Notes: a model not told the origin generated them from the sequence alone. A stretch of 32,000 nt of DNA from Candidatus Woesearchaeota archaeon (GCA_964554415.1 CAZKON010000005.1:1-32000), one strand, 5' to 3'. Positions 781 to 17,477 are shown, counted from the first letter of the stretch. Program-made: numbers and translations.

Positions 781-1722
781 ATGAGTTACGTCAAGCGGTG
801 TCCTGAATGTGGAAGCATCGATCTCACATATGATGACCATAAAGGTGAGATTATCTGCAATGAATGTGGTCTTATTATAGAAGAAAAAATGGTTGACACC
901 GGACAGGACGTTGGCGGCCAGTTCGACAAAACAGACAAAAAAGGTCGTGGCGGCGCTCCTATGTCTCTTCAGAAATTTGACAAAGGCTTAACCACTAACG
1001 TCGGAGAAATATCAGATATTTACAAGCTCGAAGCAGGGCAGACAAGAAAATTCCTAAGATTAAAAAAATGGCAGGAGCGTGTTTCTACTTCAATTGAACG
1101 CAACCTCAGGCTTGCAATGGCAGAGCTTCGACGTGTTGCCAGCTTTCTCTCACTTCCTTCAGTTGTTCGTGATGAAGCTTCGAGAGTGTACAACTATGTC
1201 TTACAGCGCGGTCTAGTCCGCGGAAGAAGCATGGAGTCAGTTATTGCCTCCTGTATTTATGCAGCATGCCGCTCGTATAACATTCCTCGCACTTTAGACG
1301 AAATTGCAAACGCCTCAGATGTAGAACGCAAAGAAATAGGTCGCACATATCGGTTTATTGTCAGAAAACTAAGAATTAAAGTTACTCCAAGCTCTCCTAA
1401 AGATTACATCTCGCGCTTCTCCTCAATTCTCCACTTATCGCCAAAAGCACAGAATGAAGCCCTGAAGATACTAAAACGTGCAGATATCTCTGAGCTTACC
1501 TCTGGTCGCGGTCCAGCAGGTATTGCTGCTGCCGCCCTATACGTCGCAGCCCTGATGAATGATGAAAAAAAAACACAGCGCGAAGTGGCTGACGTTGCAG
1601 GAATAACTGAAGTCACAATCCGTAATCGCTATAAAGAACTTATTGAGCGTCTCAAGCTGGAAGACAAGCTTAAAGCGAAAGTCATAGCGGCTGCAGAAAA
1701 AAGCGCTGCGGCAAACAAGTAA
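781..1722 (+). CDS. tfb: Transcription initiation factor IIB (TFB)
   Basis: N-terminal zinc ribbon CPECGS...CNECG, B-linker and two cyclin-fold repeats (SVIASCIYAACR..., GIAAAALYVAA...). 313 aa. Confidence 0.95.
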   Translation: MSYVKRCPECGSIDLTYDDHKGEIICNECGLIIEEKMVDTGQDVGGQFDKTDKKGRGGAPMSLQKFDKGLTTNVGEISDIYKLEAGQTRKFLRLKKWQERVSTSIERNLRLAMAELRRVASFLSLPSVVRDEASRVYNYVLQRGLVRGRSMESVIASCIYAACRSYNIPRTLDEIANASDVERKEIGRTYRFIVRKLRIKVTPSSPKDYISRFSSILHLSPKAQNEALKILKRADISELTSGRGPAGIAAAALYVAALMNDEKKTQREVADVAGITEVTIRNRYKELIERLKLEDKLKAKVIAAAEKSAAANK

Positions 1723-1810
1723 TTCTGACAGGCGCCTCGTTGTTTCACCGATTGAACAACAGACGCGATGTGCTCTGTTCATCGAGTATCGAGTACGCCT
1801 TTCTGAAAAA

Positions 1811-1891
1811 CTCTGGGTTAAAACCCAGAGGTTCTTTTGAGTCGTCAGAAACTTTCAGTTTCTGAACGCACCCAAGAACAGAAGTTCTTGG
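1811..1891. repeat. Three consecutive hairpin modules
   Basis: CTCTGGGTTAAAACCCAGAG (1811-1830), TCAGAAACTTTCAGTTTCTGA (1846-1866) and CCAAGAACAGAAGTTCTTGG (1872-1891). Confidence 0.8.
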
Positions 1892-2011
1892 TGTTTTCAG
1901 AACTCGAAAATCGGTTCGCGCACGCTCTGTGGCTTTAGCCCGGAGTAAGCGAACAGATTTTCTCAGTGTCAAGAATTTTCCGAATTATAGGATTACAACT
2001 TGAGCAACCTT

Positions 2012-2023
2012 AAAGTTTAAAAC
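2012..2023 (+). promoter_or_regulatory. TATA box (AAAGTTTAAAAC) for tRNA-Leu
   Basis: Centred about 28 nt upstream of the mature tRNA 5' end at 2047. Confidence 0.5.
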
Positions 2024-2046
2024 AAATGAAAACGCATTAATCACAA

Positions 2047-2130
2047 GCGGGGATGCCGGAGTGGTCAAACGGGCTGCCCTTAGGAGGCAGTAGCTTAGTG
2101 CTTGCAGAGGTTCGAATCCTCTTCCCCGCA
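2047..2130 (+). tRNA. tRNA-Leu (anticodon TAG), class II with long variable arm
   Basis: Acceptor GCGGGGA/TCCCCGC, anticodon arm CTGCC-CTTAGGA-GGCAG, T arm AGAGG-TTCGAAT-CCTCT. Confidence 0.9.
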
Positions 2131-2340
2131 TTTAACAGAAACGTTCGGTTCCTTTTGTTAAGGAGTGTTTCCCGTAAACACGAGTTTTAAGGACAAGGCT
2201 GCTTGGTCTTGAGCAGACTGAAATCTCCAGAATACCAAGTAGTTCTCCAAGAAAAATGTTTAGCGGTCAGAATGTGCGGACGAGTAAATCAGTTTCCATA
2301 GAATCAGCAATTGGGAGAGAGAAATGACACCGAGTCTCGA

Positions 2341-2544
2341 TCATTGGCTGCCATCGAGTTGATCGGTGCTTGCTGTTTTTTGTGCCAAGAGAATGTGCAA
2401 GAGCGCCTGGAGAGCCTCGTCCGGCAACTCTTCCAAGTAGGCTAAGAGCTTCTGTTTCTGTTCTTGGTTTCGTGAATGTTTGGCCATTTTGTTAAAGGCG
2501 GAGGTTACTGAGCGCGATCCGTTGAACGTGGATTCTTCCCACAT
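2341..2544 (-). CDS. Hypothetical small helical protein (about 67 aa)
   Basis: ORF directly downstream of the methyltransferase on the same strand. No recognisable motif. ATG at 2544 preferred over GTG at 2553. Confidence 0.35.
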   Translation of the reverse strand: MWEESTFNGSRSVTSAFNKMAKHSRNQEQKQKLLAYLEELPDEALQALLHILLAQKTASTDQLDGSQ

Positions 2545-2563
2545 GTGTACCACATGTATTCAG

Positions 2564-3388
2564 TCATACTTTGGATCGCAGCCGACGGTTGGCCATGCGC
2601 ACATAAGCCGGATTGAGTTCGATACCGATGAAATGCCGATTGAGACGGCGAGCGACAAGACCCGTTGTTCCTGCTCCAAAAAATGGATCAAGAACAACGC
2701 CGGGAGTGAAGGGAGCATTACACCCGCAGTCCGTGTATCCCGCACAGTAGTAGGAAGCCTCGGTGCGTGGAGTGTCCTGCAAAGCATTGCCAATGTGGAT
2801 TGCCGCTTTTCTCCGTTTTCCGCTATAGACAGAAGTTCCCTTGTTTGACCGCAGAAGGGTGGCGTATTTCGGTGTCGGCCTGAGAATTCTTTTCCGTGGC
2901 TTCCCACATCGGATGCAGACGAACTCAGGACAACCGGCCTGAATCGGGATTTCGCAGAGCCTTTCCGGAAAGGTGGCGAAATGCGCCTCGGCGAAAGCCT
3001 GCGTCGGAATTGACCAGACGCATCGCTTGTTTCTTCCGAGCGGATTAAGTCCATTGCGCGAAATCCGTGCCAAGACTTCGTAGGGGTTATGATTAACATC
3101 GCCCCGGTATTTGTGCCGCCCAGGATCGAAGTGCTCCTCGTTGCGCACGAACTGTTCGACACGGCGTTTCGTCGATTCGTGATGGGGTTTGAACTGTCGC
3201 CGGAAATAATACTTGGGGCTTTTCGCGAAAAAGAACACGTACTCGAAATCGACGGTGAATCGGTCGGTGGCGCTTGAGGGAAGGCAGTTTGGCTTATGCC
3301 AGACGATGACGTTACGAAGAATCCAAGACCGATTCACCATTTCAATAGCGAAACGGAAGGGAATCAAGCAGAGCGATTTCTTGGGCAA
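2564..3388 (-). CDS. Beta-class N4/N6 DNA methyltransferase, N-terminally truncated (no DPPY motif); possible pseudogene
   Basis: Motif [11 protein letters not shown] at the C-terminus, HFATFPERL and NVIVWHKPN blocks, and a Cys4 insertion (CIRCG...CGC). The ORF begins with TTG just after an in-frame TAA, and I could not find a catalytic (D/S)PPY motif upstream. Confidence 0.7.
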
Positions 3389-3726
3389 TCGGGTTCTCGG
3401 CCGCGAGGATTAATAATTTCTTGCCCAGAATTTTGGATTTCAGATGGATCAAGTCCTCCAAAGGTGATTCGGTGCGACTGACTGACGCTGGCTCGTCGCC
3501 GCTAGCATGATCCACGGGAAGGGGCACTCTGAGATAGGATTCGATTGACATGGTGAATGTGGCAGCGGTTCGTTGACCGCCTTTAAGGGAATTGCCCTTA
3601 ATCTGTTCGGAGAAACCAGAAGGAGAAATTTCCGAATGGATTGTGTGCCAACTATTTCTATGCCAATTTAGTTACTGGCACGTGGGGAAAATCGAGGGGG
3701 ACCTCCTGTCGTGATGTGCGTGTCTA

Positions 3727-4500
3727 ATGGAAGCCGCTGAGTCAAATCAAGAAGTCACGCTGCCCCAATTAACCAAGCGGATCGAGCAGCTTGAGATCTG
3801 GTGCCAGAAGGCTACAGAAGTGCTGGCCAACAACGCGGAAACTGTGCTCAAGTTTGCAGGAAAATTTCAGGAGATTAAGCTCGCCTTTGAGCCGCCCTCA
3901 AGCAAAACAATGTCTCAACCCACGACCGACGAATTGAAATCGCGGCTTTCCGCCGCCAACCACGTTCTGCAGCCCGATACCAATGCGGAAAAACGCGAGG
4001 AAGGTAAAGTTTTTGTCGAGTGGCTGAAAGATGGAAAAAGGGATAGGGGTCATTTCAACCTGAAGGTGGCGATGGTCAAGTTCAAACCGGAGGATTTCGA
4101 TCTGTTCAGCGACGAACTGAAGATGGTGCTAGCTGTTAAAAATTCAGATTGGAAGCAAAAAAAATTGCCCGACGAGATTCCTCCCAGACTCCGAGGCATG
4201 TTGTGGCTGGTGTTGATTGATGAAGACGGTAAAATGGGTTACGGAGACATTGCGAAACTTTTTCGCTTCGATAATGATATACAAGAGAAATCTCGTGACG
4301 GGAAAATTCAACAATATCGTATGCGCTTTGATAAAGAACTCCCTTGCGAGTTATGGGGCCGCGTGTTTGGGCGTGGAGACAAGAAATCATACCCGATAGA
4401 TACGAATGGTTGGTCTTTTTGCTGGATCAGGCAAAAGGCGCAACGCGCTTCGAGCATTCTCCTTCACGATATTCCGGGCAGGCCGTCAGAAGACCAGTAA
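3727..4500 (+). CDS. Hypothetical protein (257 aa) in the G+C-rich block
   Basis: Long ORF in the GC-rich region. No motif recognised. Confidence 0.5.
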   Translation: MEAAESNQEVTLPQLTKRIEQLEIWCQKATEVLANNAETVLKFAGKFQEIKLAFEPPSSKTMSQPTTDELKSRLSAANHVLQPDTNAEKREEGKVFVEWLKDGKRDRGHFNLKVAMVKFKPEDFDLFSDELKMVLAVKNSDWKQKKLPDEIPPRLRGMLWLVLIDEDGKMGYGDIAKLFRFDNDIQEKSRDGKIQQYRMRFDKELPCELWGRVFGRGDKKSYPIDTNGWSFCWIRQKAQRASSILLHDIPGRPSEDQ

Positions 4501-5051
4501 GAGTGTCCGAGATTCTCAAAAAAGGGAGTGGTTTCTTTGGGCTGTATTTGTAGGTGGTCCAAGAGACTATTCAAAATGGCATTTGCTTCCGTCTTTTGCT
4601 TTTGAGTCAAATGGAGGTCTCTTTCCAACGGTCTCGGTGTCGACCTATACACATAGTCCCAAGCAGTTGATTTTACTCTTTGCCCACCTATCTGGGCAGG
4701 GGTGCGATGGATAATGATACGATAATCCAAAGGACGGTTGTCATGTTCAAACCAAGAGGCAAACGTAGCCTGTGGGGTGGCTGGTGGCCCGAGTAACCAG
4801 GTCTCGTGAGCGACGTGCAAGATTGCTTCGACGTTTCCGCCGAGCCCAGGGCGGAAGGCATACGCTCGGCGGCACAACGCACTTAAAGTCCACGCCGTTG
4901 CTTCGTCGCGAGAACTAAACCTCCACCTTTTCACCCGCAGATAAGAAGGAGCCTTGGGAACTGCTTTTCGAATGTCCTCCATTTTTAGAAGATACCCTGT
5001 GGTGAGACAGACGTAATCATCCTCCCCGACAACTAGAATCAGTTTTACCAT
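4464..5051 (-). CDS. Hypothetical protein (195 aa) in the G+C-rich block
   Basis: Long ORF whose 3' end overlaps 3727..4500 convergently by 37 nt. No motif recognised. Confidence 0.45.
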   Translation of the reverse strand: MVKLILVVGEDDYVCLTTGYLLKMEDIRKAVPKAPSYLRVKRWRFSSRDEATAWTLSALCRRAYAFRPGLGGNVEAILHVAHETWLLGPPATPQATFASWFEHDNRPLDYRIIIHRTPAQIGGQRVKSTAWDYVYRSTPRPLERDLHLTQKQKTEANAILNSLLDHLQIQPKETTPFFENLGHSYWSSDGLPGIS

Positions 5052-5117
5052 GCAGAGAGGATGCGCCAGTTCACTTAAAAGCTTTTCCGGTCGGCTCCCC
5101 TTCGGATCGCTCTATAA

Positions 5118-5152
5118 GAATTCTAGGAATTCTAGGCGAGAATCTAGGAGGA
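5118..5152 (+). promoter_or_regulatory. Three tandem AAT(T)CTAGG repeats followed by AGGAGGA Shine-Dalgarno-like element
   Basis: Repeats at 5119-5127, 5128-5136 and 5141-5148. AGGAGGA at 5146-5152 lies 15 nt before ATG 5168. The region sits between divergent ORFs. Confidence 0.45.
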
Positions 5153-5167
5153 CAGGGGACTCGCAAT

Positions 5168-5725
5168 ATGGAATTAGTCACACGACAAGCAATGATCACC
5201 AACACCAAGAGCAGAGTGACCGAGATTAATACGTTGCAAGGTCAGCTCACCGACGCCCTGCAAACCTGGGGCGCCACCCTCATCGATCCTGACCTACTCC
5301 AGTCCGACCTCACGGCTTCTTTGCATGCCAATGGTTCTGTCCACACAACGGCGTTGCACAGTTGTGCTTGTGAGTTCGTGGCAATGAAGAAAATCCGGAG
5401 AAGCTACGAGTGTGGCGCTAAATTTCAGGTGGTGGTCATTGATGACGAACCGGCGAGAGATCGAATTGCGTCACACCTTTATCACAATCTGTCGGAGTCG
5501 GAATGGAAGCGCCTGCTTGTGATCAGCCATGACCAAATTTGTGCAGTGTTTCGATGGATCGAGGACGAAATCGAAAGGTCCGATTCCTCCGCAGCGAGAT
5601 CCATGAAAACCTTCATCACCGCTATCAGTACGTTCCTGTGCGCGACTCTGCCTTCGCGTGCATCGGACGCAACTTCTCGGAATACGTGCGCAGGATTTGC
5701 GGGCCTTTTGCATAAACATAGGTGA
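5168..5725 (+). CDS. Hypothetical protein (185 aa) in the G+C-rich block
   Basis: ORF preceded by a strong SD-like AGGAGGA. No motif recognised. Confidence 0.5.
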   Translation: MELVTRQAMITNTKSRVTEINTLQGQLTDALQTWGATLIDPDLLQSDLTASLHANGSVHTTALHSCACEFVAMKKIRRSYECGAKFQVVVIDDEPARDRIASHLYHNLSESEWKRLLVISHDQICAVFRWIEDEIERSDSSAARSMKTFITAISTFLCATLPSRASDATSRNTCAGFAGLLHKHR

Positions 5726-5814
5726 ACTCACGAACAATTAATGGTGAAGTGCCTAGCCATCACTCTTTTAAAACGCCGATGAATAAGTGGAACTCTTGAG
5801 AGGGACAGTGCGGT

Positions 5815-6117
5815 CTATCTCTCGGATTCCTCATGAGGAGAAAGTCTTTGCTGTTTCACTTTCTCGTAAACGAAGCCGATGAATGCACCGATGGCAAAGT
5901 AAAATAACACTGCAAACACATAACTAACAAACGAGGGGGTTGATAGTGATGGAGGAGTAATTAAAGACAGCAACAACAAGGGATAAAGAAACGGGTTCCA
6001 AATGCACTCCGGCCGACACGCCGGTATAAATGTGATCGCGAGAACTGTAACTGCTGCTATAAAGAAACAAAGCGCAACTCCTCCCTTTAACCAATACTGA
6101 CAATCTCCCAGTCCCAT
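5815..6117 (-). CDS. Small integral membrane protein (about 3 TM, 100 aa)
   Basis: Three hydrophobic segments. The minus-strand TATA (plus TATATAATA, 6139-6147) is centred 26 nt from ATG 6117. Confidence 0.6.
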   Translation of the reverse strand: MGLGDCQYWLKGGVALCFFIAAVTVLAITFIPACRPECIWNPFLYPLLLLSLITPPSLSTPSFVSYVFAVLFYFAIGAFIGFVYEKVKQQRLSPHEESER

Positions 6118-6138
6118 TCCCCCTGTTTGCTATTTGGG

Positions 6139-6179
6139 TATATAATACTTTTGGTATTTCCGTTATTTCCGTTAAATAG
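6139..6179. promoter_or_regulatory. Divergent promoter pair (TATATAATA 6139-6147 for the minus gene; TTAAATAG 6172-6179 for the plus gene)
   Basis: Each box lies about 27 nt from the respective ATG (6117 minus, 6204 plus). The direct repeat TATTTCCGT x2 sits between them. Confidence 0.5.
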
Positions 6180-6203
6180 TAAAGCTACAACACAGCATTA
6201 CCT

Positions 6204-6404
6204 ATGACCATCCTACAGGAAAATGCCTTTAATGAAGCGGAACATCAGAAGAGACTTTATGACGCCATTAGGTATTCATCCCTTTTAACAGCGCAGAAGT
6301 GGAATAAAAAGCTCCTCGTCGCCGCAGTTGGTTTGCTCGTCAGTATGTTTTGCGTAGAAATTGTATTCGCCCAATCGACCGATCGAGGAATCGGTCTAAT
6401 GTAA
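6204..6404 (+). CDS. Hypothetical small protein with one TM segment (66 aa)
   Basis: The ATG sits exactly at the predicted leaderless start. Hydrophobic stretch LLVAAVGLLVSMFCVEIVFA. Confidence 0.45.
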   Translation: MTILQENAFNEAEHQKRLYDAIRYSSLLTAQKWNKKLLVAAVGLLVSMFCVEIVFAQSTDRGIGLM

Positions 6405-6463
6405 ATTGTTGGCAGGGTGCTCACGGTTGGGAAGGGCTTCTCCATGCCGACAGGGAGAAACAG

Positions 6464-6835
6464 ATGATGGAAAAATTAAAAGATAAAGGGATAAAATCAT
6501 ATGTTCTTTTCACAAGTAATACGCCGCTTGACAAAATTGTACTTAGTTTTTACCGAAATACTGGTGTAAAAGGAATAATCGGCGAGTCTTCATCGTCCTT
6601 CGATAAATCTTATTATGTGGGGACATATGGAGATTTAGTTGTCCAAACACAATATCCAGAACAATTAGTTAAAGCGCTTGATATCTTCTTCAGAAAAAAC
6701 AAAAAGTTAGAAGACCTTAATTTAAAAGAATTATCAGATATTGTAAATGAAAAATTAGAAATTAAACTGAGCGTGATACGAAATTTAGCAATGGCTAAAC
6801 AGCTTAATCAGTCGATTCTTTCACAAATTGAGTAA
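6464..6835 (+). CDS. Hypothetical protein (123 aa)
   Basis: I moved the start to ATG 6464, which is preceded by GGGAGAA. The upstream part of ORF 6350.. overlaps the previous gene and has different composition. Confidence 0.5.
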   Translation: MMEKLKDKGIKSYVLFTSNTPLDKIVLSFYRNTGVKGIIGESSSSFDKSYYVGTYGDLVVQTQYPEQLVKALDIFFRKNKKLEDLNLKELSDIVNEKLEIKLSVIRNLAMAKQLNQSILSQIE

Positions 6836-6947
6836 AACGATCTGTCACCCTCCCGTCATCGCCTGACTTTTTAACCTCTGCAACCCCCCTTCAATGTTAT
6901 AAGCAATCGCGCTCAACAGACCATATCAGGTTAATATGCCAAAACCA

Positions 6948-6990
6948 TCAGAAATCGCTGGTTTCTGAGGCCTCAAGAACTGAAGGTTCT
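6948..6990. repeat. Two hairpin modules (TCAGAAA-TCGCTGG-TTTCTGA; AGAAC-TGAAG-GTTCT)
   Basis: Read directly. Same stem family as the other intergenic modules. Confidence 0.7.
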
Positions 6991-7040
6991 CTCAGTGTCC
7001 AGATGCTTCCTCTCGATTTAATACTTTTCGTCAATCTACA

Positions 7041-7054
7041 GAAAGGTTTAAATA
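7041..7054 (+). promoter_or_regulatory. BRE/TATA (GAAAGGTTTAAATA) for the MNT/HEPN operon
   Basis: The TTTAAATA centre is 27 nt upstream of ATG 7077. Confidence 0.6.
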
Positions 7055-7076
7055 CTTTATTACTAACATAAGTAAT

Positions 7077-7637
7077 ATGTTGCTAGATAAGAATACTCTC
7101 TGCATTTTAGGAGCATTTGCTTCCGATTATACGAAAAAGATCTATGGAAGTGACTTGGCAAAAAAACTGAACATGAATCAAAAGACAGTCTCAAATATTT
7201 TAAATAAGCTCGAGAAAGAGCACATCCTTAAATTCGCAATCGAAGGAAAGAACAAATACTATTACTTCAACAAATTTAATAGTCACATCAGAGAAATTGT
7301 AAAACTCATAGAAATAGGTAGAAAAATAGCGTTTCTAGAAAAATATAAGCACTTACAAGATCTCTTTAAAGAACTGGAAGAGCGATCTAAAGGGATTGTG
7401 GTTATTTTTGGAAGTTACGCGAAGGGTGCGCCTACGAAGAGTTCTGACCTTGACGTTTTTCTGATAGGTTCTTGTTCAAATGTGGAGAATCTGGAAACGC
7501 TCTACAATCTGAAAATAAACATTATATTCTCAGAAAAAAAGAAATTTGATAAAAACGAACCCTTCATCAAAGAAATTATAAAGAGTCATATTGTACTTAA
7601 AGGGGTAGAAGAGTTCGTAGAATTACTATGGCAGTAA
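7077..7637 (+). CDS. wHTH-fused minimal nucleotidyltransferase (MNT-type antitoxin-like)
   Basis: N-terminal winged-helix-like segment (LAKKLNMNQKTVSNILNKLEKEHIL) plus NTase motif GSYAKGAPTKSSDLDVFL. Confidence 0.8.
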   Translation: MLLDKNTLCILGAFASDYTKKIYGSDLAKKLNMNQKTVSNILNKLEKEHILKFAIEGKNKYYYFNKFNSHIREIVKLIEIGRKIAFLEKYKHLQDLFKELEERSKGIVVIFGSYAKGAPTKSSDLDVFLIGSCSNVENLETLYNLKINIIFSEKKKFDKNEPFIKEIIKSHIVLKGVEEFVELLWQ

Positions 7638-8101
7638 CATTGCGCTGGTGCTGTACAAATGAGAATGGGCTTAAGCTCGATACGCCGAGTGAAAACCTTG
7701 CACAAGGATATCTCACACTTGCTGAAAATGCTTTAGGAACCATGAATCGAGAAAGAAACTACAATCGCCAATTTGCGATCTCTGCTTGTTATTATTCTAT
7801 GTATTATGCCTTGTACGCAATTCTCATGAAATTAGGTATCAAATGCGAGATTCATTCATGTACTCTTGAATTCATGAAGAAACTACTCAAAGACTTCTAT
7901 GCTCCAGAAGACATGCAAGCAATTAAGAAAGCATTTGATTGTAGGGAAACTGCACAATACTATGTGGACAGAATCGTCACAAAGGAAGATGAGATGTATA
8001 TTATGGCTCAAGCTCCTCTTTTCATTACTAAATCCAAAGAAATTCTCGCCAAGCTCAACGAGAACGACATTCAGAAAATACGAGACGAGTTAAAAAAGTA
8101 A
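7628..8101 (+). CDS. HEPN domain protein (partner of the MNT)
   Basis: Overlaps the MNT gene by 10 nt. Helical HEPN-like pattern ACYYSMYYALYAILMKLGIKCEIHS. I did not see a clear RxxxxH motif. Confidence 0.7.
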   Translation: MAVTLRWCCTNENGLKLDTPSENLAQGYLTLAENALGTMNRERNYNRQFAISACYYSMYYALYAILMKLGIKCEIHSCTLEFMKKLLKDFYAPEDMQAIKKAFDCRETAQYYVDRIVTKEDEMYIMAQAPLFITKSKEILAKLNENDIQKIRDELKK

Positions 8102-8298
8102 AAGAGAAGCGTTAATCAGACATTTCATAAAATTTCGTTCCTTCACCTAGATTTTCTATGTAGACTAAAAGAAAATCCTCAGATAAATCGGATTGAAGAA
8201 GTGATAGCAAAGATATATAACCTTCAATGTATGCAGAGTTCTACAAATAATTAAGAGCACTTCGTAATCTTACGATTCTGCCAAGATGATGCTAAGCT

Positions 8299-8311
8299 TC
8301 TTCCCCGCATT
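8299..8311 (+). repeat. 13-nt direct copy (TCTTCCCCGCATT) of the tRNA-Leu 3' end and flank (2120-2132); candidate att remnant
   Basis: Exact match read directly. It lies in non-coding DNA. Confidence 0.4.
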
Positions 8312-8491
8312 ATACTATTCTGGCATTTCTGTCCGAATCATCTGTTCTGTATCGAGCGTTTATAAACACCGTATGTGGGGCAAACTGATGGCAAGGCAAG
8401 ACCTTAGTGTATTGAAGAACAATAAAAAGTGTAACTACTAAATAATTACCATAATGAAAAGATTTAAATACCCTTAATTTGTAAAGAATAT

Positions 8492-9331
8492 ATGAAAGCT
8501 CGTAAATTGTTAAGAAACTTGCCTATGAGTTTGCTCTTCGGAGTAACTGCCTGCCATACATCGATGCCTGCTTCAAGAATAGTTACAAAAGGCCCAATGC
8601 ATTATAATAATCAGACATCAATACCTGCTTCAGGAATAGTTACAAAAGACACAATGCATTATAATAACAACTTGGCACTTCCGAATTTGACAGTTGAAAA
8701 AGAAGCTCGAACCAATACAATGAATATTGCAGGCATATTTTATGCTGACAGTAATCAAGCGAGTATCTACGAAACAAACCGGACTAGATTCAATCGAACA
8801 AACGAGTTGCCGTTTGTGGCGTTTCTCATTACTGATATGGAAACGACAAAAGACCCAGTGAGAAAAATAGGGATCAACAGAAATGATGTATTTGTGTTCG
8901 AAGCAATAACAAATGCTCAAGGTAGCTATAAGGGTCTTAAAATGGGAACTAACGGTCCAAACGGAATCAAAATAGTGCGAAAATTCAGGACCGCAAGCAC
9001 GAATAATCCTCTTGAAGTTGTTACGTCCTTAGAATCTGTGTTTGACAAAGATTTATACCGTCCAAATATATTAGGCAAGCCGTACTTCACACCTTTAGTA
9101 ACAGATAAAGAATTAGCTGATACAAATGTTTTCCCAAGGTTGCATATTCCAGGAAACAATAAGTATAGAGAAAATATTGAAGGTTCAATTACCTTTGAAG
9201 GTCCTATCTTTAAAGGTCAACGTATGAAATACGCAGATTATATAACACGCACAAACATTGTTGCTATTCCAACAAATGCTCTGCCGGGATACTCAACTGG
9301 TCAAGCAACTGATTACGTCGACAACCCTTAA
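8492..9331 (+). CDS. Secreted protein with lipobox-like signal (LLFGVTAC), 279 aa
   Basis: The TATA box (8463-8470) is 27 nt upstream of the ATG. Hydrophobic N-terminus ends in Cys. Contains an internal 19-aa tandem duplication. Confidence 0.65.
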   Translation: MKARKLLRNLPMSLLFGVTACHTSMPASRIVTKGPMHYNNQTSIPASGIVTKDTMHYNNNLALPNLTVEKEARTNTMNIAGIFYADSNQASIYETNRTRFNRTNELPFVAFLITDMETTKDPVRKIGINRNDVFVFEAITNAQGSYKGLKMGTNGPNGIKIVRKFRTASTNNPLEVVTSLESVFDKDLYRPNILGKPYFTPLVTDKELADTNVFPRLHIPGNNKYRENIEGSITFEGPIFKGQRMKYADYITRTNIVAIPTNALPGYSTGQATDYVDNP

Positions 9332-9343
9332 TTCTTATGAGTT

Positions 9344-12300
9344 TTACGGATTCTCTACATACTCTTCGCCATATCCAAATGTCCCTGACGATGAAGGCTC
9401 TGCCAATATCTGAATACTTCCACTAAATAAATCTGCGTATTTCTTTCCCTGCAAAGCAAGGAGATGATTGTGTATCACAATTGGAAGAGAGAGTGCGTTA
9501 ATCACTGATTCTTCTATGTTGATAATACCGTACTCGCTCACACTCCCGATTTTCTGTACTTGTGTCTCTGTTTTGATACGTATAAAGAATGTGTTACCAA
9601 TCAAATAAATGTCTAGTGGTATCTCTCCAGCATAAACAATATCCGCAGAAACACCATCAGGCGTTTTGCCAGCATGAAGGGAATAAACACCAACATCTTT
9701 TGCTTCACTGGAAGATTTTTCTTTGACTTCTTGATTCAACTCAGGCAGTTTTTCAGTCATGCGCTCTTTTTTCAGCAAATGTATCTCCGCAAGCTGTCGT
9801 GCAATTGCAGAATATACTCTCCCTTCAAGATACAAAAGCTGAGCTTTGTGATAATTCAGATATAATGAATTTCTTACAGTTCCTGCTCTTACAAGGATTG
9901 CCTGAATTTCAGTCAATTCAGATGTAGTAAGATTCCCTCCTCCTCGCGCGCTGAGACTTGTTTCCACATGTTCAACACTGCCCTGAAGCGCGTTAAGTTC
10001 TGTATTCGCCTCTTCTTCTCTTAACAGCACACCTCCTTTCTCCAGATTCTCTCTTTGTACTTTTTCCAGAGCTTGCAGAGTCGCATTTTTAACACCCAGA
10101 TTATTATCAGTGATTGCATTATCAACACTTTTTTTGTCAAGCCAGCACATAACTTTCTCTCCATCACATCGCCCGACAGGAACGAATCGCGTAGGCTCAG
10201 TTCCTGTTCCAGGATTTTCAGTTGCACAAATGCGGACTACTCCTCTTCTATAGATTTCAGGATTAAAAGCTTCCTGTGCTCCCTGTTGCAAATTAGGATT
10301 CAGCAAGGCAGTTGCACTTGTGCTTCCGCTGATGCATTCTTTTTCAGATGTAACAGTGCTTTCCTTGATTTGCTCAGCTACAATTGCATCTCTGACATAA
10401 TTTACTGCAAAACTTGTTGAAACCTGCTTAAACCCGCACTTTTCTTCACCGTTAAGATTAACACAAAGTTCTTGGTATCCTTCAGGAGCAGTGAAATCAC
10501 GAGTCTCATCTCTATAATCCCCTTTCTTTACAAATCCAGAAGCAACCTGAATAATAGGGCTTACAGCATAATATGATGATTGTGGTGGGCTCTTCAGATA
10601 AACTCGGTAATAAGCTCCCTGATCTTTGCCTGCGTATAGGTGATAATAAACTTTGTAGTTTGCAGTAGCAGGTATAGTTACATCACTGTATTTAACACTG
10701 CTAAAGTAAGCATGAAACTGTGGCGGACTGTCAGGAGCTAATACTGTCTTTAGCGATGTAGGTGCCCTCATAGATATAAAGCTCTTGCAGAATTCCCCGC
10801 CAGCTTCCTCAACAGAACGCGCTTGGAATGCCTTAAACGCATTCACACCATATACCTGAGTGAAGTAATTAACAGATTGCTGCATATTCTGCCAGGCACC
10901 CATCACAGTCAGATATTCTCCTCCGCCTCGCACTCCCTGCCCATAAGCAGTCTCAAGCAGTCTTGGCACTAGCACTTTTGCCAGGGGGGCAAGTTGTCTC
11001 CAGAAGAATTCGCAAGTATAAACCGAATAAAGCTGGTCGCAAATTCCGACTAATTGTCCGCTCTTTACGCTCTCTTGTAAGCAATCTCTATGTGCTTTCA
11101 ATATAGAAACATAACTATCTATGCCTGCATGAATGCCAGTAAGGCACACAGGAACCTTCACCTCTGGAAAGTTTGGCATGCAAAGCAGCGTGCTTCCGAT
11201 TATTCCTGACTGCACCACATCCGCAACAGGATACTTCCCCCCGAAATCGCAGCGTGTAGCAGGACAGATAACAGGGTCGCATAAGTTAAATATCAAATTA
11301 CATTCGCCAGGGGACATAAAGTCTTGGCATTGCGCAGCAGGCACGCTTACTGCAGGCTTGCCAACTCTAATGTCTCCAGTTCCTGCAATAGTAACTCTGC
11401 TGTTTCCATGTTGTCTTGCCGCCTGCTCAAGTGCCTCGCGTGCGCGCACAACAAGTGCACGTGCCTCTTCATCGCTCAATCCAGGGAACTTATTCAAAGG
11501 CTGTCCAGTTTGCAGATTTACCATCTCACATACGTCATCGCCTAAACCCTCAAGGAACTGTTCTCTTTTGTTTGCCCCGACATTGCAAAGCCAGAAACTA
11601 GTCGCTCGTCCAGATGCGTCGAAAGCTCCAATGCCCCCGAATGCAGGCAATATCTGTTTTGCAGCAGCATACCATCCACGTTGCAAATCAAAAGGCACAA
11701 TCGCAGGCATACCTTTATAAGGTTCTCTGTCGTAGAATTTTACTTCAGGATTTTCATATTTATTGAAATAAGATAGCTGTTGTTGTGAGTATAATGTACC
11801 TAATCCATACGTATTAGAAAAAGTTGCAGGAGATATTTCATTCAGAGTATCTCCATCATGAATACTATAAACCTCATTTGCTCCGCTGCCCTCTTTCTTC
11901 ATTACGCTCCGTATAGTATATGCTCCATTGCCCGCATCCTGCAAACCAAGAAGGTATGTGCCTCCGCTGTACTGCTTCCCATCTTTAGACGACGCAGGAG
12001 GTACAACAACACTTGCAAGATGAGTCACTCCATCTGCAAAAACCATGTCTGCCTTGCTTCCGCGTTGCACAGCGCTCACAGGAGCAACTTCAACATATCT
12101 CTCTCCTTGGCTTTTCGGCGTTGCAGTAAACGGAGAAGGGAATCCTTGCGCTCTAAGTGATTGTTCAGATTTATATTTCTCCGTCAAAGCATGATTAATG
12201 CTGATGCTTGAGCCGATTGTTTCAAGTCTCTGCTCGACATTTGCCTTAGTGCCGTTAGAGATGCCGCTGTTTTTCTGCAGCAATAAATTTTGATGCAATT

Positions 12301-14851
12301 CACGCAATGAATCATAACTATATTCTCCATCTTCATATCCTCTAGAGTTTGCGAGCAGCTCTTTCACAGGAACAGACCTTACACCTTTAGAGTCTTTGAT
12401 TTGTACCATATCCTCACCATGATTATCAAGCAGATACTGGCGATATTTTGGCACAGACTGGCTTGGCTCAATTGAACTGCTCAAAAATCCCGAAGTTTTA
12501 GGCACGCCTGCCTCGGCTTCTTTGATAGCTGAATTTACTTTCTGAATCTGTGCGTCAGCTATTTGCACATCACGATTTATTTCATCAGCATGCTTGCTAA
12601 AACACGCATCAAGTGATTTTGATGCCCCACTTGATACTTCTACTTGGCATCTGGCAGTCCACCCTTTATCTCCGCGCATTATTTGTTGTCGTGCAAATCC
12701 TGTCCCAGATAAACCAGTCACAAAATTCTTCACAGTCAAAGCACCCGCAGTAGCAAAGCACGCACCTTTCAAGCCAGAGACAACATTCCCGAGAGTGTTT
12801 GAAATCTGCTCCCACTTCCTGATGCTTTCATTTATAGTTGCAATCTTGCTTAATGTTGCATTTGGTGCAAGTTGAATAGCACGTTTTTCAATGCCTATGC
12901 GTATAGTTACATTCGTTCTGGTTTCTGTCCCCCATGCTTGTGGAGTTAAAGTGATTCTGGCAGAACGTTGCACATCAAGGCGTTGCAGAACAACAGGCTG
13001 CCCGCACACTACAACTGATTCACCAATACGCAAAGTAGGTTTGAAGTTCCTCTGAGATTCAGCAGGACAGCTAGTGCTGACAGTTATAAAATCAGACTCA
13101 ATACGCTGAATTGTCAAAGTCCGTTTATTCTTGTCAGTGCTTTGTGGAAGTTCATAAACCGTTCCTGCCTTCACAGTCACAGCTTTTGCTCCGATAGCAA
13201 GTGTTGCACTAGATTGTTCTCTCGGTTCTTCTATTGAAACAATCCTAATAGTTCTGAATCTGCCATTTATATCAACCGCAGAAGCTGCTCTTGAGAAATC
13301 AATATGCTCGCTCCGCGCAATCTCCTGTCTGTATGCTTCACTTTCAGGAGCATTAGGATATGTAGTCACATACATCTGAAGCAAACGCAGGCGCTGCTGC
13401 TCTTTGTTAAGAGTTGTTGCTAATGCAATTGCTTCTGCCAATGCATTCTGCCCATAAGGATTCCTTGCCGCAGAAGCTTTCTCAGCAGGATAATCTCGCG
13501 CTATCTGCTCAAACGCATGCAATGCCTCGCTAAAGTTCCCTTCAACTCCTTGAACCCCTGACCATGATTGATCTATAACAATATCTTCAGGAGCTACATG
13601 ACTCTCTCTCTCAAGCTGTCTGTATGCAATCATTGTTTCCCGCAATTGCTTTGTCATAGCATTATTAATAGCGAGCCTCCACTCTCCACTTGCCCACTGG
13701 TACAACAAATCAGAAGAAGTCAGATTATATTTCACTCCTTCAATTTCTACAAGATATGATTCTCCGTCTCTATAAGGGAAATTCTTTGTCCCATCATTTG
13801 CAACAAATAAGTCAAATGTCGCAGCCCCTTTAGCTCGCAGCTGAAGAACAAGAGTCTCTGAAAGGCAGCGCAAAGTTACGTTTCCGGTTCCAACGCTGGT
13901 GTTATCAAGCCTTATACTGGAAACAGTGCATTGACCATTTAAAATCCTGCTCCCTTCATAAACATCTACTACATCTGTGCTGTTGCTGCTTGTAATAGCT
14001 AGCCTTACTCGAGTCTGGCTGGCTTCATATCCAGTATAATCAACATACAATGCTGCACGGCAATAGCTCTCCGGCACAAATATCTCGCGTGACCTTGTTC
14101 CTTTTTCAACATGAGTAGTAGCAATTTGCCTGTCCCCGCTATAAATTGAAATATCTGCACCGCGCTCATCTGCATTTAATAACCTAATAAAATATTTCCC
14201 GTTCCAGAAGCTTTGGCGCTGGCTTTTATCAGACCATGCAAAATCATTCTGTTCTTCCAGCACAAACTCAGTTCTCCCGATGCCCAGTGCATTGCCTGCA
14301 TCATATTCAAGCCGCCCGCTTAAGTTAACAACTACTGATTCAGGTAATTCGCTTTCTCGTGGCTGCTTTTGAAGAACAATAACAGCATATCCTATATTAT
14401 TCAAAAGTGGGTCCCCCAGCAACCTATTACGAGTCACCAATCCGGCGCGCGCAGGGTGGAATCCAACAGCCACAACACCTTTTGGATACTCTTTATCAAA
14501 TCCAATACTCTTAATTTCTTTTACATTAAGAAGTGGGTTGATTTTTAACGCGTCAATCTGGCAGAATACAGGCACGTTTTGTTCTGCAAGCAAATCGCTT
14601 CTCACAACAGCAGGCTGGCATCCGGCAGGAGCGACCTGCAAGACAAAATCTTCCCGGTTCTTGCACTGAGAAGAATCATCTAAAATAGGCCAATAAGTGT
14701 TTGCCTGCGCACCATAATATGTTTGAAAACTTGCTTGATAGCTCGGTCTCGTCACATAAGTTGCAGAGCTATAAACCTGCGCGTTGGCAAAAACCGTGAA
14801 TAAAACAATAAAAATACAAATCAAAAATAACAGAATCGCATATCTTCTCAT
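9344..14851 (-). CDS. Giant secreted protein (1835 aa), family not recognised
   Basis: Uninterrupted 5.5-kb ORF with a Sec-type signal (ILLFLICIFIVLFTVFANA-QV). Its start overlaps the upstream stop as ATGA. No C-terminal TM segment. Confidence 0.9.
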   Translation of the reverse strand: MRRYAILLFLICIFIVLFTVFANAQVYSSATYVTRPSYQASFQTYYGAQANTYWPILDDSSQCKNREDFVLQVAPAGCQPAVVRSDLLAEQNVPVFCQIDALKINPLLNVKEIKSIGFDKEYPKGVVAVGFHPARAGLVTRNRLLGDPLLNNIGYAVIVLQKQPRESELPESVVVNLSGRLEYDAGNALGIGRTEFVLEEQNDFAWSDKSQRQSFWNGKYFIRLLNADERGADISIYSGDRQIATTHVEKGTRSREIFVPESYCRAALYVDYTGYEASQTRVRLAITSSNSTDVVDVYEGSRILNGQCTVSSIRLDNTSVGTGNVTLRCLSETLVLQLRAKGAATFDLFVANDGTKNFPYRDGESYLVEIEGVKYNLTSSDLLYQWASGEWRLAINNAMTKQLRETMIAYRQLERESHVAPEDIVIDQSWSGVQGVEGNFSEALHAFEQIARDYPAEKASAARNPYGQNALAEAIALATTLNKEQQRLRLLQMYVTTYPNAPESEAYRQEIARSEHIDFSRAASAVDINGRFRTIRIVSIEEPREQSSATLAIGAKAVTVKAGTVYELPQSTDKNKRTLTIQRIESDFITVSTSCPAESQRNFKPTLRIGESVVVCGQPVVLQRLDVQRSARITLTPQAWGTETRTNVTIRIGIEKRAIQLAPNATLSKIATINESIRKWEQISNTLGNVVSGLKGACFATAGALTVKNFVTGLSGTGFARQQIMRGDKGWTARCQVEVSSGASKSLDACFSKHADEINRDVQIADAQIQKVNSAIKEAEAGVPKTSGFLSSSIEPSQSVPKYRQYLLDNHGEDMVQIKDSKGVRSVPVKELLANSRGYEDGEYSYDSLRELHQNLLLQKNSGISNGTKANVEQRLETIGSSISINHALTEKYKSEQSLRAQGFPSPFTATPKSQGERYVEVAPVSAVQRGSKADMVFADGVTHLASVVVPPASSKDGKQYSGGTYLLGLQDAGNGAYTIRSVMKKEGSGANEVYSIHDGDTLNEISPATFSNTYGLGTLYSQQQLSYFNKYENPEVKFYDREPYKGMPAIVPFDLQRGWYAAAKQILPAFGGIGAFDASGRATSFWLCNVGANKREQFLEGLGDDVCEMVNLQTGQPLNKFPGLSDEEARALVVRAREALEQAARQHGNSRVTIAGTGDIRVGKPAVSVPAAQCQDFMSPGECNLIFNLCDPVICPATRCDFGGKYPVADVVQSGIIGSTLLCMPNFPEVKVPVCLTGIHAGIDSYVSILKAHRDCLQESVKSGQLVGICDQLYSVYTCEFFWRQLAPLAKVLVPRLLETAYGQGVRGGGEYLTVMGAWQNMQQSVNYFTQVYGVNAFKAFQARSVEEAGGEFCKSFISMRAPTSLKTVLAPDSPPQFHAYFSSVKYSDVTIPATANYKVYYHLYAGKDQGAYYRVYLKSPPQSSYYAVSPIIQVASGFVKKGDYRDETRDFTAPEGYQELCVNLNGEEKCGFKQVSTSFAVNYVRDAIVAEQIKESTVTSEKECISGSTSATALLNPNLQQGAQEAFNPEIYRRGVVRICATENPGTGTEPTRFVPVGRCDGEKVMCWLDKKSVDNAITDNNLGVKNATLQALEKVQRENLEKGGVLLREEEANTELNALQGSVEHVETSLSARGGGNLTTSELTEIQAILVRAGTVRNSLYLNYHKAQLLYLEGRVYSAIARQLAEIHLLKKERMTEKLPELNQEVKEKSSSEAKDVGVYSLHAGKTPDGVSADIVYAGEIPLDIYLIGNTFFIRIKTETQVQKIGSVSEYGIINIEESVINALSLPIVIHNHLLALQGKKYADLFSGSIQILAEPSSSGTFGYGEEYVENP

Positions 14852-16710
14852 GTGAATACCACCTCTGCTCGTTGCAGTGCAAATAATTCATAATTTGTCT
14901 GAAGCTGCGTCAGCGTTGTTGGTTTAGGTAAGGCAGGCACACTAATCTCCAGTGTTCCCTTTTCTAGTTCTGCAGGAAGAAGATAAGCACTTACACTTCC
15001 TCCGCCAACAAGAGCAGTATCAACCTTTGTTTCAGGCAGGTTAATATCATAACATTGCTCACGAGTTCCTCCAAACAATCCTGCAAAACCTGAACGAGGT
15101 ATAGTTGTGCATTCTCTGCTTGTGCTTGCAGGAATCGTAACGCCTGCATTGCCATATACATAAACAGTAATATTATAAGCACCCTCGCTAAGGCTGACAT
15201 TCTTCACTTCAGGATATACAACGCTGGTAGAGCCAGGACCTTCGAATGAAATAAGAATCAGTCCGGAAGTATTGGTTGCTCCGATAATTTCAACATCAAG
15301 ATTCAAAGTATATACTCTATCAAGAATAATTGTGCTTTCTTGAGAATCTACGCTTGAGAAAATTTGGCGTTGGGAAGCATATCCTTCAGCACTAACAGAA
15401 AGATAACCATTAAGGCATCCTGGAATCACTCCTTCAACACGACCTCCGGCACTCTTCCCAATCTGACAAATCTGATCAAAACAAGCGTATGCAACTTCTG
15501 CACCATCAATCGGCTTAAGCAGCACATCTCGGACATTTACGCTAACTGGTTGCGAAGCAAATGCGCATAGCTCTTCCTGCTCTTGCTCTTCAGCAATAGA
15601 TTGAGGGGATGCTTGTCTTGGAAGATTGTTATCTACACTCACAACCAAAGGAAATTGAAATAACTCATCATCTCTCGAGAGCTGCACCATGACAGGATAA
15701 CTAAAATCATATACAAAATGGTATGGCGCATAGCAAAATCCAAGTACGCCAAGTCCTTGCTGCAAGCCAACAGGTTCAGCAATCATAATTTCTTGTGATG
15801 CTCCGGAAATTTCTGTTTTGCTGGGCCATTTCGTAGAATACAGGAAGCTAACATGGTCATCAACATTATGCTCAACTACAAAATACTTGTTCTGGCTATT
15901 TTGAAGAGTATAATAGTCTCCCTTCATTTTTACAGCCGCAACATTCGCAGCCAGGCCTTCATGTAATTTTGAAACAACATCGCGCGTTTTCCAGACTTTC
16001 GGCGCGCAGCTCGTCTCAACGCCATCAACAGGTGCATAAAGATACAAAACATCACTCGAGTAATTTTCCAAAAAAGCGCTTTTTTGTTCATACTGATAAA
16101 TTGACAAAGCTTGGCTGTATAGTGCTCCAAACCTGCTAGGCACTTTTATGTTATGCGTTGTCCTACGCGAGCTGCCCTTGCTATCGCTCACAACAATATT
16201 TTGATTAATGCGAACACCAATAATATTATCATTAATCTCAATATCAACTTCAGGCAGCCCCATTGTAACATTTACACCCTGCTCTGCAAATATAGAGAAA
16301 TCACATTTCTGGATTGTAGACTCAATATGCTCTGCAAGCTCCTTCTCAATATCCTGCTTTTTAGGCACATTTTCTTTGATTACTCCATTGCTGCTGGGAT
16401 ATTGCCAATAAGGCACAGGAAAACCTAAAAAGTCAAGTTGTGATGAAAAAGGAGCATAATCGCTGCCAGGAATGAAAGAAGGAGTTTTGATGTATCCTCC
16501 CTGCGTTCCGGCAAGAGTTAAAGCTGCGCGCGTTTCTAGAACAACACACTCTTCATAATACTGAAACACCTGATCCGAGACGCGCTCTCCGCCTCTGAAT
16601 TCAGAAAGCTGCCACGCAACTGCCGCAATTCCAATCACTGCAACCAAAACAATAGAAATAATCACAAAAATACTTATCTGCCCTTTCTTCCATTGTATGG
16701 ATAACCTCAT
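14848..16710 (-). CDS. 620-aa extracellular protein with prepilin-like (class III) signal peptide
   Basis: N-terminus MRLSIQWKKGQISIFVIISIVLVAVIGIAAVAW. A beta-sandwich-like segment ...GYLSVSAEGYASQRQIF resembles the CarboxypepD_reg/PEGA pattern. Confidence 0.85.
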   Translation of the reverse strand: MRLSIQWKKGQISIFVIISIVLVAVIGIAAVAWQLSEFRGGERVSDQVFQYYEECVVLETRAALTLAGTQGGYIKTPSFIPGSDYAPFSSQLDFLGFPVPYWQYPSSNGVIKENVPKKQDIEKELAEHIESTIQKCDFSIFAEQGVNVTMGLPEVDIEINDNIIGVRINQNIVVSDSKGSSRRTTHNIKVPSRFGALYSQALSIYQYEQKSAFLENYSSDVLYLYAPVDGVETSCAPKVWKTRDVVSKLHEGLAANVAAVKMKGDYYTLQNSQNKYFVVEHNVDDHVSFLYSTKWPSKTEISGASQEIMIAEPVGLQQGLGVLGFCYAPYHFVYDFSYPVMVQLSRDDELFQFPLVVSVDNNLPRQASPQSIAEEQEQEELCAFASQPVSVNVRDVLLKPIDGAEVAYACFDQICQIGKSAGGRVEGVIPGCLNGYLSVSAEGYASQRQIFSSVDSQESTIILDRVYTLNLDVEIIGATNTSGLILISFEGPGSTSVVYPEVKNVSLSEGAYNITVYVYGNAGVTIPASTSRECTTIPRSGFAGLFGGTREQCYDINLPETKVDTALVGGGSVSAYLLPAELEKGTLEISVPALPKPTTLTQLQTNYELFALQRAEVVFT

Positions 16711-16925: not shown

Positions 16926-16975
16926 AATAACCTGCGTATATCATATACTTTGAAAATTTTTGATTCCTGAGCGCA

Positions 16976-17451: not shown

Positions 17452-17477
17452 GGTTTTGATGTTCAATGTTATATCTT

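Follow-up and report, generated by a model that had tools for sequence, protein, structure and literature searches.

A probable decayed genomic island at the 3' end of tRNA-Leu(TAG) in a DPANN archaeon: empty, occupied and alternatively occupied states of a recurrently used site

Introduction

That genomic islands occupy tRNA genes, decay there and accrete in tandem is already well known. According to the Islander description, the ends of such an island are marked by a regenerated tRNA gene and a displaced tRNA fragment (PMC4383910). Here, we describe an insert of 6.2 kb at positions 2133-8311, directly behind a tRNA-Leu gene with the anticodon TAG, in a DNA stretch of 32,000 nucleotides (in the following the window; Candidatus Woesearchaeota archaeon, GCA_964554415.1 CAZKON010000005.1:1-32000). 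It is likely that this insert is a decayed genomic island, which entered the 3' end of tRNA-Leu by site-specific recombination. The GTDB genomes nearest to it belong to DPANN archaea and carry the labels Pacearchaeota, Woesearchaeota or Nanoarchaeota, and the host is a tiny groundwater-type, Pacearchaeota-like DPANN archaeon. To our knowledge, this group has tiny genomes and very little described mobile DNA, and cultures of this lineage do not exist.

The locus shares with tRNA-gene islands the regenerated tRNA, the displaced copy of its 3' part, the empty site and the foreign composition, and its cargo likewise includes defence and toxin-antitoxin-type genes; it differs in having no integrase, in a displaced fragment of only 11 nt plus 2 nt and in the DPANN host (PMC4383910). 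Of the features that define a tRNA-gene island, only the integrase is missing. A further comparison is offered by cis-mobilizable elements (CIMEs): for streptococcal tRNA genes, the decay to elements flanked by attachment (att) sites and their tandem accretion have been described (PMC5704250, citing Pavlovic 2004 and Bellanger 2011). The features of CIMEs given in this source, namely retained attL and attR, the loss of integration and transfer genes, tandem stacking and decayed genes, are found here too, and Pfam, PADLOC and PHROG searches revealed no relaxase, transfer gene or recombinase in the insert. Unlike the CIMEs of that account, the insert resides in an archaeal host without an evident conjugation system and has no known mobilising partner. 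It fits the descriptive definition of a CIME, and it may have originated from a conjugative or mobilizable element.

Integrated elements of archaea form arrays by re-use of one site and can have short direct repeats, as a survey of Thaumarchaeota has described (PMC6563490). These elements resemble our insert in being small and cryptic and in their position at tRNA genes with short direct repeats and in arrays, but they are defined by an integrase, whereas no integrase was detected in about 65 open reading frames (ORFs) from the corresponding gap in 28 loci of our lineage. The Tycheposons of Prochlorococcus are similar with respect to streamlined genomes, tRNA-adjacent islands, partial tRNAs and degenerate remnants, and newcomers push older elements inward in their islands (bioRxiv 10.1101/2020.12.28.424599). 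Tycheposons carry tyrosine recombinases and fragmented integrase remnants, whereas no integrase fragment was seen here. What is new in the present case is the host group, the precise comparison of three states of one site and the lineage-wide lack of integrases at this site.

Results

Empty and occupied sites

The insert starts immediately behind a tRNA-Leu gene, which is complete according to ARAGORN, the full-length Rfam model and its cloverleaf fold. The following features define the borders:

2047-2130, plus strand: tRNA-Leu (anticodon TAG), intact, the integration target; ARAGORN, Rfam RF00005 (58.8 bits, full length), cloverleaf fold
2120-2132, plus strand: attL core, TCTTCCCCGCATT; exact match, homology to L083/L084 ends at 2131/2132
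8299-8311, plus strand: attR core, the displaced tRNA 3' end; exact repeat, nhmmer att model match at 8288-8339 (E 1e-10)
8312-8330, plus strand: original downstream flank of tRNA-Leu, now 6.2 kb away from the tRNA; matches L083 and L084

The first-pass annotation, which was made from the sequence alone, had interpreted the segment as a candidate island on the basis of a 13-nt direct repeat of the tRNA 3' end and a G+C-rich foreign core. Indeed, TCTTCCCCGCATT is present as an exact copy at 2120-2132 and 8299-8311, the tRNA is intact and there is no third copy in the window. Of its 13 nt, 11 belong to the tRNA, in which they begin with the three final T-stem nucleotides and continue through the 3' acceptor strand to the discriminator, and 2 nt are flanking. 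The repeat is real, but the chance expectation of about 0.001 that had been attached to it was too low. A realistic estimate has to take in all three tRNAs and the many positions at which a repeat could start. Of 300 dinucleotide shuffles, 12 gave a second occurrence in the window of a 13-mer from the 3' region of one of these tRNAs, which corresponds to about 4%. Therefore, the repeat alone is only suggestive, and it is turned into decisive evidence by the comparative data.

Two close relatives, the contigs L083 and L084, were found by a metagenome scan with the C-terminus of an 1835-aa protein encoded downstream of the insert. Compared with the window, both are about 87% identical in DNA and 90-91% identical in protein. 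The homology between L083 and the window extends up to 2132 and starts again at 9697, within the 1835-aa gene. In L083 the tRNA-Leu runs straight into the homologue of the window sequence from 8312 onward (CCCCGCATT followed by ATACTTTTCTGACATCT), and the right end in the window reads CCCCGCATT followed by ATACTATTCTGGCATTT. In detail, ATACTATTCTGGCATTT covers 8312-8328 directly after the right repeat, its counterpart behind the tRNA of L083 is ATACTTTTCTGACATCT, and blastn of L083 against window 8301-8326 gave 92%. As the right repeat and its flank match the tRNA end of L083, they represent the original tRNA 3' end and its downstream sequence. Consequently, the DNA from 2133 to 8311 was inserted here and is delimited exactly by the 13-nt repeat. 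The direct junction of tRNA-Leu with the sequence from 8312 onward is what had been predicted for a related genome, and L083 thus supports the interpretation as an island at tRNA-Leu by providing the empty site. The opposite result, a segment shared by all relatives, was not obtained: L083 is empty, and with the exception of one MNT/HEPN pair (32% identity) the ORFs of window 2341-9331 were not found in 80 related loci.

The second relative represents a further state of the site. L084 carries different DNA of 6.6 kb at the same position and beyond it the same native flank as L083. Three att-like copies are located at the tRNA, at about 4895-4930 and at about 9345-9375, the last one followed by the native flank, and therefore L084 holds two tandem inserts. 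The first contains a gene for a TrmB-type regulator and ORFs without assigned role, the second a gene for a Fic protein and a block with 47-57% G+C. The repeated segment in L084 reaches about 20 nt beyond the tRNA into the lineage-specific flank. The G+C-rich block at tRNA-Leu of L084 (6000-9345 of the reverse complement) is unrelated in sequence to the G+C-rich block of the window, as a tblastx comparison of both blocks found no relationship, and one of its ORFs has a weak match to sigma-70 region 2 (E 3e-4, below the Pfam cut-off). Since the two blocks are unrelated, high-G+C foreign DNA has entered the tRNA-Leu site at least twice. The T-stem of tRNA-Leu (window 2107-2122) reads AGAGG/CCTCT in the window and ACAGG/CCTGT in L083 and L084, which is a compensated pair, and both variants also occur among more distant relatives.

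An assembly artefact as the source of the segment, which had been considered at the outset, is excluded by independent Logan assemblies. The contig L081 from run SRR12113384 is identical to window 2094-6687 and spans both edges of the G+C-rich block. Logan contigs from three other runs, of which SRR12113384 is one, cover at 99.97-100% identity 2094-6687, 6417-8096, 7941-10973 and 8213-9401; with those of SRR12113424 and SRR12113383 the overlapping coverage extends to 10973 and every junction is included.

Composition and gene content of the insert

Judging from its sequence, the insert is probably composed of two tandem units, unit A (2133 to about 7020) and unit B (about 7020 to 8311), with the following features:

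2133-5800, no strand: G+C-rich foreign core of unit A; composition, G+C at third codon positions (GC3), tetranucleotide distance
2341-2553, minus strand: 70-aa ORF with sub-threshold Pfam matches only; gene call in the Logan contig
2538-3405, minus strand: 5'-truncated remnant of a beta-class N4/N6 DNA methyltransferase gene (ORF 2564-3388); Pfam PF01555, homologues
3727-4500, plus strand: 257-aa ORF, convergent with 4464-5051; homologues beside o4464 homologues in L116 and L117
4464-5051, minus strand: 195-aa ORF (o4464), intact, 3' end overlapping 3727-4500; conserved family
5168-5725, plus strand: 185-aa orphan ORF; AGGAGG 16 nt upstream of the ATG
5815-6117, minus strand: 100-aa membrane ORF in the tail of unit A; hydrophobic segments in the translation
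6204-6404, plus strand: 66-aa ORF in the tail of unit A; ORF list, Logan gene calls
about 6464-6835, plus strand: 123-aa ORF in the tail of unit A; ORF list, Logan gene calls
6839-7015, plus strand: non-coding stretch that closes unit A on the right; homology to the first L084 insert at its right end
7004-7032, plus strand: probable degenerate internal att remnant, GCTTCCTCTCGATTTAATACTTTTCGTCA; position of the internal att of L084, GCTTCCTCCCGCATCTTACATTTCTGGCA
7077-7637, plus strand: unit B, winged helix-turn-helix plus nucleotidyltransferase (MNT) gene; Pfam NTP_transf_2 (4e-9) and HTH families
7628-8101, plus strand: unit B, gene of the HEPN-domain partner; Pfam HEPN (1.5e-5), 10-nt overlap with the MNT gene

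The core at 2133-5800 is compositionally foreign, and the methyltransferase remnant is the sole gene in it that could be recognised. Its G+C content is 0.50 in comparison to 0.41 in the host flanks, and the remaining insert is host-like or more AT-rich (0.41 at 5801-7020, 0.35 at 7021-8311). GC3 is 0.51-0.59 in the core ORFs versus 0.22-0.48 in host genes, and the tetranucleotide distance to the host has its maximum over about 1500-4500. The shift noticed in the first-pass annotation therefore persists under computation, and G+C, GC3 and tetranucleotide composition agree in direction, but the values given there (about 55% against 35-40%) overstated a difference of 50% versus 41%. The strong AGGAGG ribosome-binding site that had been ascribed to this block turned out to be a weak argument, as the insert contains only two AGGAGG motifs, which are not more densely spaced than those in the remaining window.

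The methyltransferase gene had been recognised as degraded, and the comparison with its homologues bears this out. ORF 2564-3388 matches PF01555 (N6_N4_Mtase) only at positions 63-221 and can be aligned to MboIIA from residue 85. Homologues with 87%, 84% and 73% identity have a length of 381-403 aa and contain the catalytic motif SPPY at residues 14-19. The window protein begins at about residue 101 of these homologues, the N-terminal ~100 codons including the SPPY motif are gone and in-frame stop codons are present upstream. The DNA homology to L104, the closest relative, is restricted to window 2538-3405 and ends at about codon 101. The relatives are located on contigs with 54-55% G+C; a gene for a HerA-type ATPase is found in L103 and L104, and L103 contains in addition genes for a DnaG-type primase, SSB and DUF932, so that it looks like part of a mobile element. 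L104 and the Logan matches of the window belong to one sequencing project. Besides the methyltransferase, the insert shares no gene with L103 and L104, and in a phage database the methyltransferase was the sole match among the insert.

The two convergent ORFs next to it form an intact, conserved pair, and o4464 belongs to an uncharacterised family. For o4464 we found 117 representative homologues (E<1e-3), and its AlphaFold model has a pLDDT of 93.6 and a pTM of 0.91. The predicted fold has no match in PDB or BFVD, and sequence searches of Pfam, PHROG, PADLOC and PDB were negative as well. A 195-aa ORF of the methyltransferase contig L103 was tried as a relative of o4464 and is unrelated despite the equal length. 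A word search of 5.8 billion proteins with ORF 3727-4500 yielded one distant homologue only, and Pfam, PHROG and PADLOC gave no match; homologues with 27-34% identity adjoin the o4464 homologues in L116 and L117, and L082 encodes a homologue with 28% identity, while o4464 is represented by a faint trace at the contig end. The convergent module of two genes (~195 aa and ~260 aa) with overlapping 3' ends was observed in the window (3727-5051), in L116 (4684-6020), in L117 and in part in L082. It is found in DNA with 50-60% G+C, and the L116 contig has 60%. ORF 5168-5725 has no homologue besides itself, and its one PADLOC match (REase_II, E 0.002) is not significant. The searches against viral and recombinase families that had been recommended for the ORFs of 3727-5725 thus gave no significant match. 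The tail of unit A (5815-6835) has a host-like G+C content, and none of its ORFs matched a family in Pfam, PADLOC and PHROG.

The probable border between both units was located by comparison with L084. The segment 6839-7015 matches positions 4786-4910 of the L084 reverse complement with 74% identity over 105 nt and then with 19 of 20 identical nt that run into the L084 att. A 50-nt palindromic repeat at 6946-6995 splits a segment that is contiguous in L084 and is therefore an insertion relative to L084. This repeat belongs to a family of short palindromic intergenic repeats (TCAGAAA-N7-TTTCTGA and TCAAGAA/TTCTTGA motifs), which we observed at 595-654, 1842-1975, 6946-7004, 17030-17330 and 20026-20240, that is upstream of TFB, tRNA-Leu and tRNA-Val and in other places. 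The family may represent miniature mobile elements or regulatory sites.

Unit B is an archaeal-style toxin-antitoxin-type cassette of 1.3 kb. The MNT/HEPN pair named in the first-pass annotation was confirmed by the Pfam families NTP_transf_2 and HEPN and by the overlap of the two genes. The MNT protein additionally belongs to the PADLOC candidate-defence family PDC-M05A (2.5e-14), and its gene shows the archaeal leaderless layout with a TTTAAATA box at about -30. As expected for an MNT/HEPN toxin-antitoxin-type pair, the genes overlap, but the 157-aa translation of the HEPN protein contains no R-x(4-6)-H motif, and the corresponding place reads RETAQY. In the related locus L036 an MNT homologue with 32% identity lies directly behind tRNA-Leu, a HEPN homologue is part of the same cassette, and the pair forms a stand-alone unit of 1.1 kb flanked by tRNA repeats.

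Use of the site across the lineage

TFB was used as a query against 185,579 species genomes, which resulted in 80 loci. About 50 of these loci keep the order S8e - TFB - tRNA-Leu - variable gap - 1835-aa gene (minus strand) - 620-aa gene, and in most related genomes tRNA-Leu is located behind the TFB gene. The anchors in the window are:

55-552: ribosomal protein S8e gene
781-1722: TFB gene
9344-16710: two conserved genes as anchors of the locus, coding for proteins of 1835 aa and 620 aa

Neither of the two large proteins has a Pfam match. The 1835-aa protein has a hydrophobic segment at the N-terminus and its length is variable (2003 aa in L083 and L084). An exact-protein look-up for TFB gave no record.

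In 53 loci, the gap between the tRNA and the stop codon of the large gene measures between 3 nt and 7.3 kb, and it is widest in L084 (7294 nt) and the window (7213 nt). In 9 of the 53 loci, all more distant than L083, the tRNA is only 3-16 nt away from this stop codon, which is likely the ancestral state. Of 28 non-redundant loci whose gap measures 300 nt or more, eight have in this gap copies of the tRNA 3' end with an exact match of 12 nt or longer, in comparison to 0.02 expected from shuffling. The repeats in these loci begin in the T-loop or T-stem and finish at the tRNA 3' end. In L036 the tRNA is followed by the MNT-HEPN pair, a 26-nt copy, a second nucleotidyltransferase/HEPN-like pair, a 16-nt copy and the large gene, whereas L076 has a 26-nt and an 18-nt copy behind a nucleotidyltransferase-type pair. 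L055 contains a displaced tRNA fragment of about 42 nt with a different, compensated T-stem, located 4 nt from the stop codon of the large gene, and this is a classical sign of an incoming element that supplies its own tRNA 3' part. The cargo of other gaps includes PIN, ParE, RHH/MazF, Fic, GNAT, SIMPL and YbjQ domains. Taken together, tRNA-Leu is a hotspot at which DNA has been integrated repeatedly in this lineage. The tandem arrangement of two nucleotidyltransferase/HEPN-type pairs in opposite orientation (L036 11277-13484) was also observed in L088 and L102.

We do not count the 279-aa ORF at 8492-9331 as part of the island. It has a lipoprotein-type signal at the N-terminus like the ORFs at the same position elsewhere, and we treat it as a fast-evolving native gene; as a metagenome query for empty sites it found no relatives. 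Such ORFs of ~260-330 aa with a lipoprotein-type N-terminal signal lie beside the stop of the large gene in many genomes, among them the window, L001, L007, L016, L029 and L048, and are barely alignable between species, and L083 and L084 have an RHH/MazF pair instead. A second strain-specific segment was noticed at 16924-18786 (1.86 kb versus only about 36 nt in L083/L084), which contains the ORFs 17478-17906 and 17861-18526 without family match and several palindromic repeats.

Search for an integrase

The first-pass annotation had not recognised an integrase, and profile searches of the insert, the window and the gap ORFs of the relatives confirmed this: recombinase domains are absent from all ORFs of the insert (Pfam, PADLOC and PHROG) and from the other ORFs of the window. 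The ORFs scanned in the 28 gaps comprised about 65 distinct ones out of about 90. A regular-expression scan of about 100 loci for box II of tyrosine recombinases found nothing either, but the scan is crude and its negative outcome carries little weight. Seven matches of the tRNA 3' end to viral contigs were considered as attP candidates and discarded; six of them fall in tRNA-type sequences of phage contigs, for the most part within tRNA arrays, and the seventh, in a Mu-like bacterial phage (L106), is due to chance.

Archaeal integrases of the SSV type, also called suicidal integrases, have a gene that is split by the integration. The insert resembles this system with respect to the archaeal integration into the 3' part of a tRNA, but both of its ends are non-coding (2133-2340 and 8102-8298) and contain no ORF resembling one half of an integrase. 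An ORF across attR (8286-8441, 51 aa) extends into the host flank and has no match. A provirus with a split integrase was rejected, as no integrase fragments exist at either end. An integron appears equally inapplicable, since there is no integrase in the window and the repeated sites look like copies of the tRNA 3' end and not like attC-type sites.

Discussion

The intact tRNA, the displaced fragment, the empty site, the repeats that start in the T-loop or T-stem and the tandem units together represent the footprint of site-specific integration into a tRNA gene. We assume a crossover within or beside the final ~11 nt of the tRNA. With a replacement 3' end supplied by the incoming DNA, the tRNA would have stayed intact, and the original 3' end with its native flank would have been displaced 6.2 kb downstream, where it now forms attR. 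Most likely, two units were stacked at the same site. Unit A would combine a core with 50% G+C from a foreign mobile element, including the truncated methyltransferase gene and the intact gene pair, with small archaeal-style genes. The recombinase was most likely a tyrosine integrase, which may have been lost with the parent element or supplied from elsewhere. We favour an integrase encoded by the element and lost later over one encoded elsewhere, because the methyltransferase is truncated and the island shows signs of general decay. As none of the two units contains a recombinase, the island is either fixed in place or mobile only with outside help.

Several points weigh against a decayed island that arrived by site-specific recombination. 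The comparison with L083 alone fits an insertion in the window lineage as well as a deletion in the L083 lineage, and the polarity is given only by the wider survey of the locus. The repeat is short and on its own carries the chance expectation of about 4%. The nhmmer att profile did not detect the degenerate internal att at 7004-7032, so that the division into two units is inferred. The G+C-rich core lies directly at attL, and a second border, toward the AT-rich tail, cannot be recognised. Furthermore, the ~65 gap ORFs of the relatives contain no integrase domain, and the searches revealed neither a circular form nor a matching virus or an element with attP. The enzyme itself is thus wholly inferred.

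With these points in mind, other explanations have to be considered. The segment could be a single element of ~6.2 kb that carried the core together with MNT/HEPN, integrated once and lost its integrase afterwards, and the fact that only two clear att copies exist in the window and that the att profile missed the internal one speaks for it. We regard this as rather unlikely, because the 177-nt segment to the left of the internal site matches the att-abutting right end of the first L084 insert with 19 of 20 identical nt up to the att, MNT/HEPN occurs alone as a 1.1-kb cassette in L036, and the two parts differ strongly in composition and promoter layout. It is almost certainly wrong that the G+C-rich block is bacterial or other DNA mis-joined to an archaeal contig, although the abrupt change in G+C, the bacterial-type methyltransferase relatives and the metagenomic source would be compatible with such a chimera: the SRR12113384 assembly reproduces 2094-6687 exactly with both block edges, further runs reach 10973, and the block lies inside an att-bounded unit beyond which the host sequence continues correctly. 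There is hardly more room for a coincidental 13-nt repeat in a fast-evolving intergenic region that gained DNA by non-site-specific events. The chance expectation of the repeat and the variability of the region between the tRNA and the large gene in all relatives would allow it, but behind the right copy the sequence agrees, in register, with the native tRNA flank found in L083 and L084, and partial tRNA copies are present in far more gaps (8 of 28) than the 0.02 expected. Coincidence is effectively refuted by these data.

A more far-reaching possibility is that in Pacearchaeota-type DPANN archaea the junction between tRNA-Leu and the large gene (the 1835-aa gene, presumably for a surface protein) serves as a platform, where modules without an integrase are captured and placed one behind the other on copies of the tRNA 3' end. 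Capture would proceed through recombination on short homology or by a recombinase whose gene lies in another part of the genome, similar to integrons or to elements that exploit host Xer recombinases. This would account for the missing integrase domains in the ~65 gap ORFs, for cassettes that are too small to contain one (several have 1.1-1.3 kb), for a cargo of mostly MNT/HEPN, PIN, ParE, RHH/MazF and Fic modules, and for the L084 repeat that extends ~20 nt past the tRNA into the lineage flank, which fits cassettes circulating within the lineage. Nevertheless, it seems doubtful to us, as no candidate recombinase was identified and the repeated decay of ordinary integrase-bearing elements would create the same picture. 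In addition, segments from the T-loop or T-stem to the tRNA 3' end are reportedly the classical footprint of element-encoded tyrosine integrases, a view that is said to go back to Williams in 2002, and the long displaced fragment in L055 is typical of element-encoded integrases. In this improbable scenario, nucleotidyltransferase/HEPN pairs and other toxin-antitoxin pairs would make up most of the modules, with an occasional fragment of a foreign mobile element of high G+C content. If true, such a platform would be an archaeal functional analogue of integrons or of cis-mobilizable-element systems. A decayed island brought in by an element-encoded tyrosine integrase that was lost later remains our preferred explanation.

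For annotation, the result means that 2133-8311 is accessory DNA and the methyltransferase gene a pseudogene. The consistent absence of an integrase in cis raises the question which enzyme serves the tRNA-Leu site. With an empty site, an occupied site and an alternative occupant at hand, the locus provides a precisely delimited case of horizontal acquisition in a DPANN archaeon. Furthermore, a single tRNA gene serves in this lineage as a recurrent entry point for toxin-antitoxin and defence-type cassettes as well as for DNA of clearly foreign composition.

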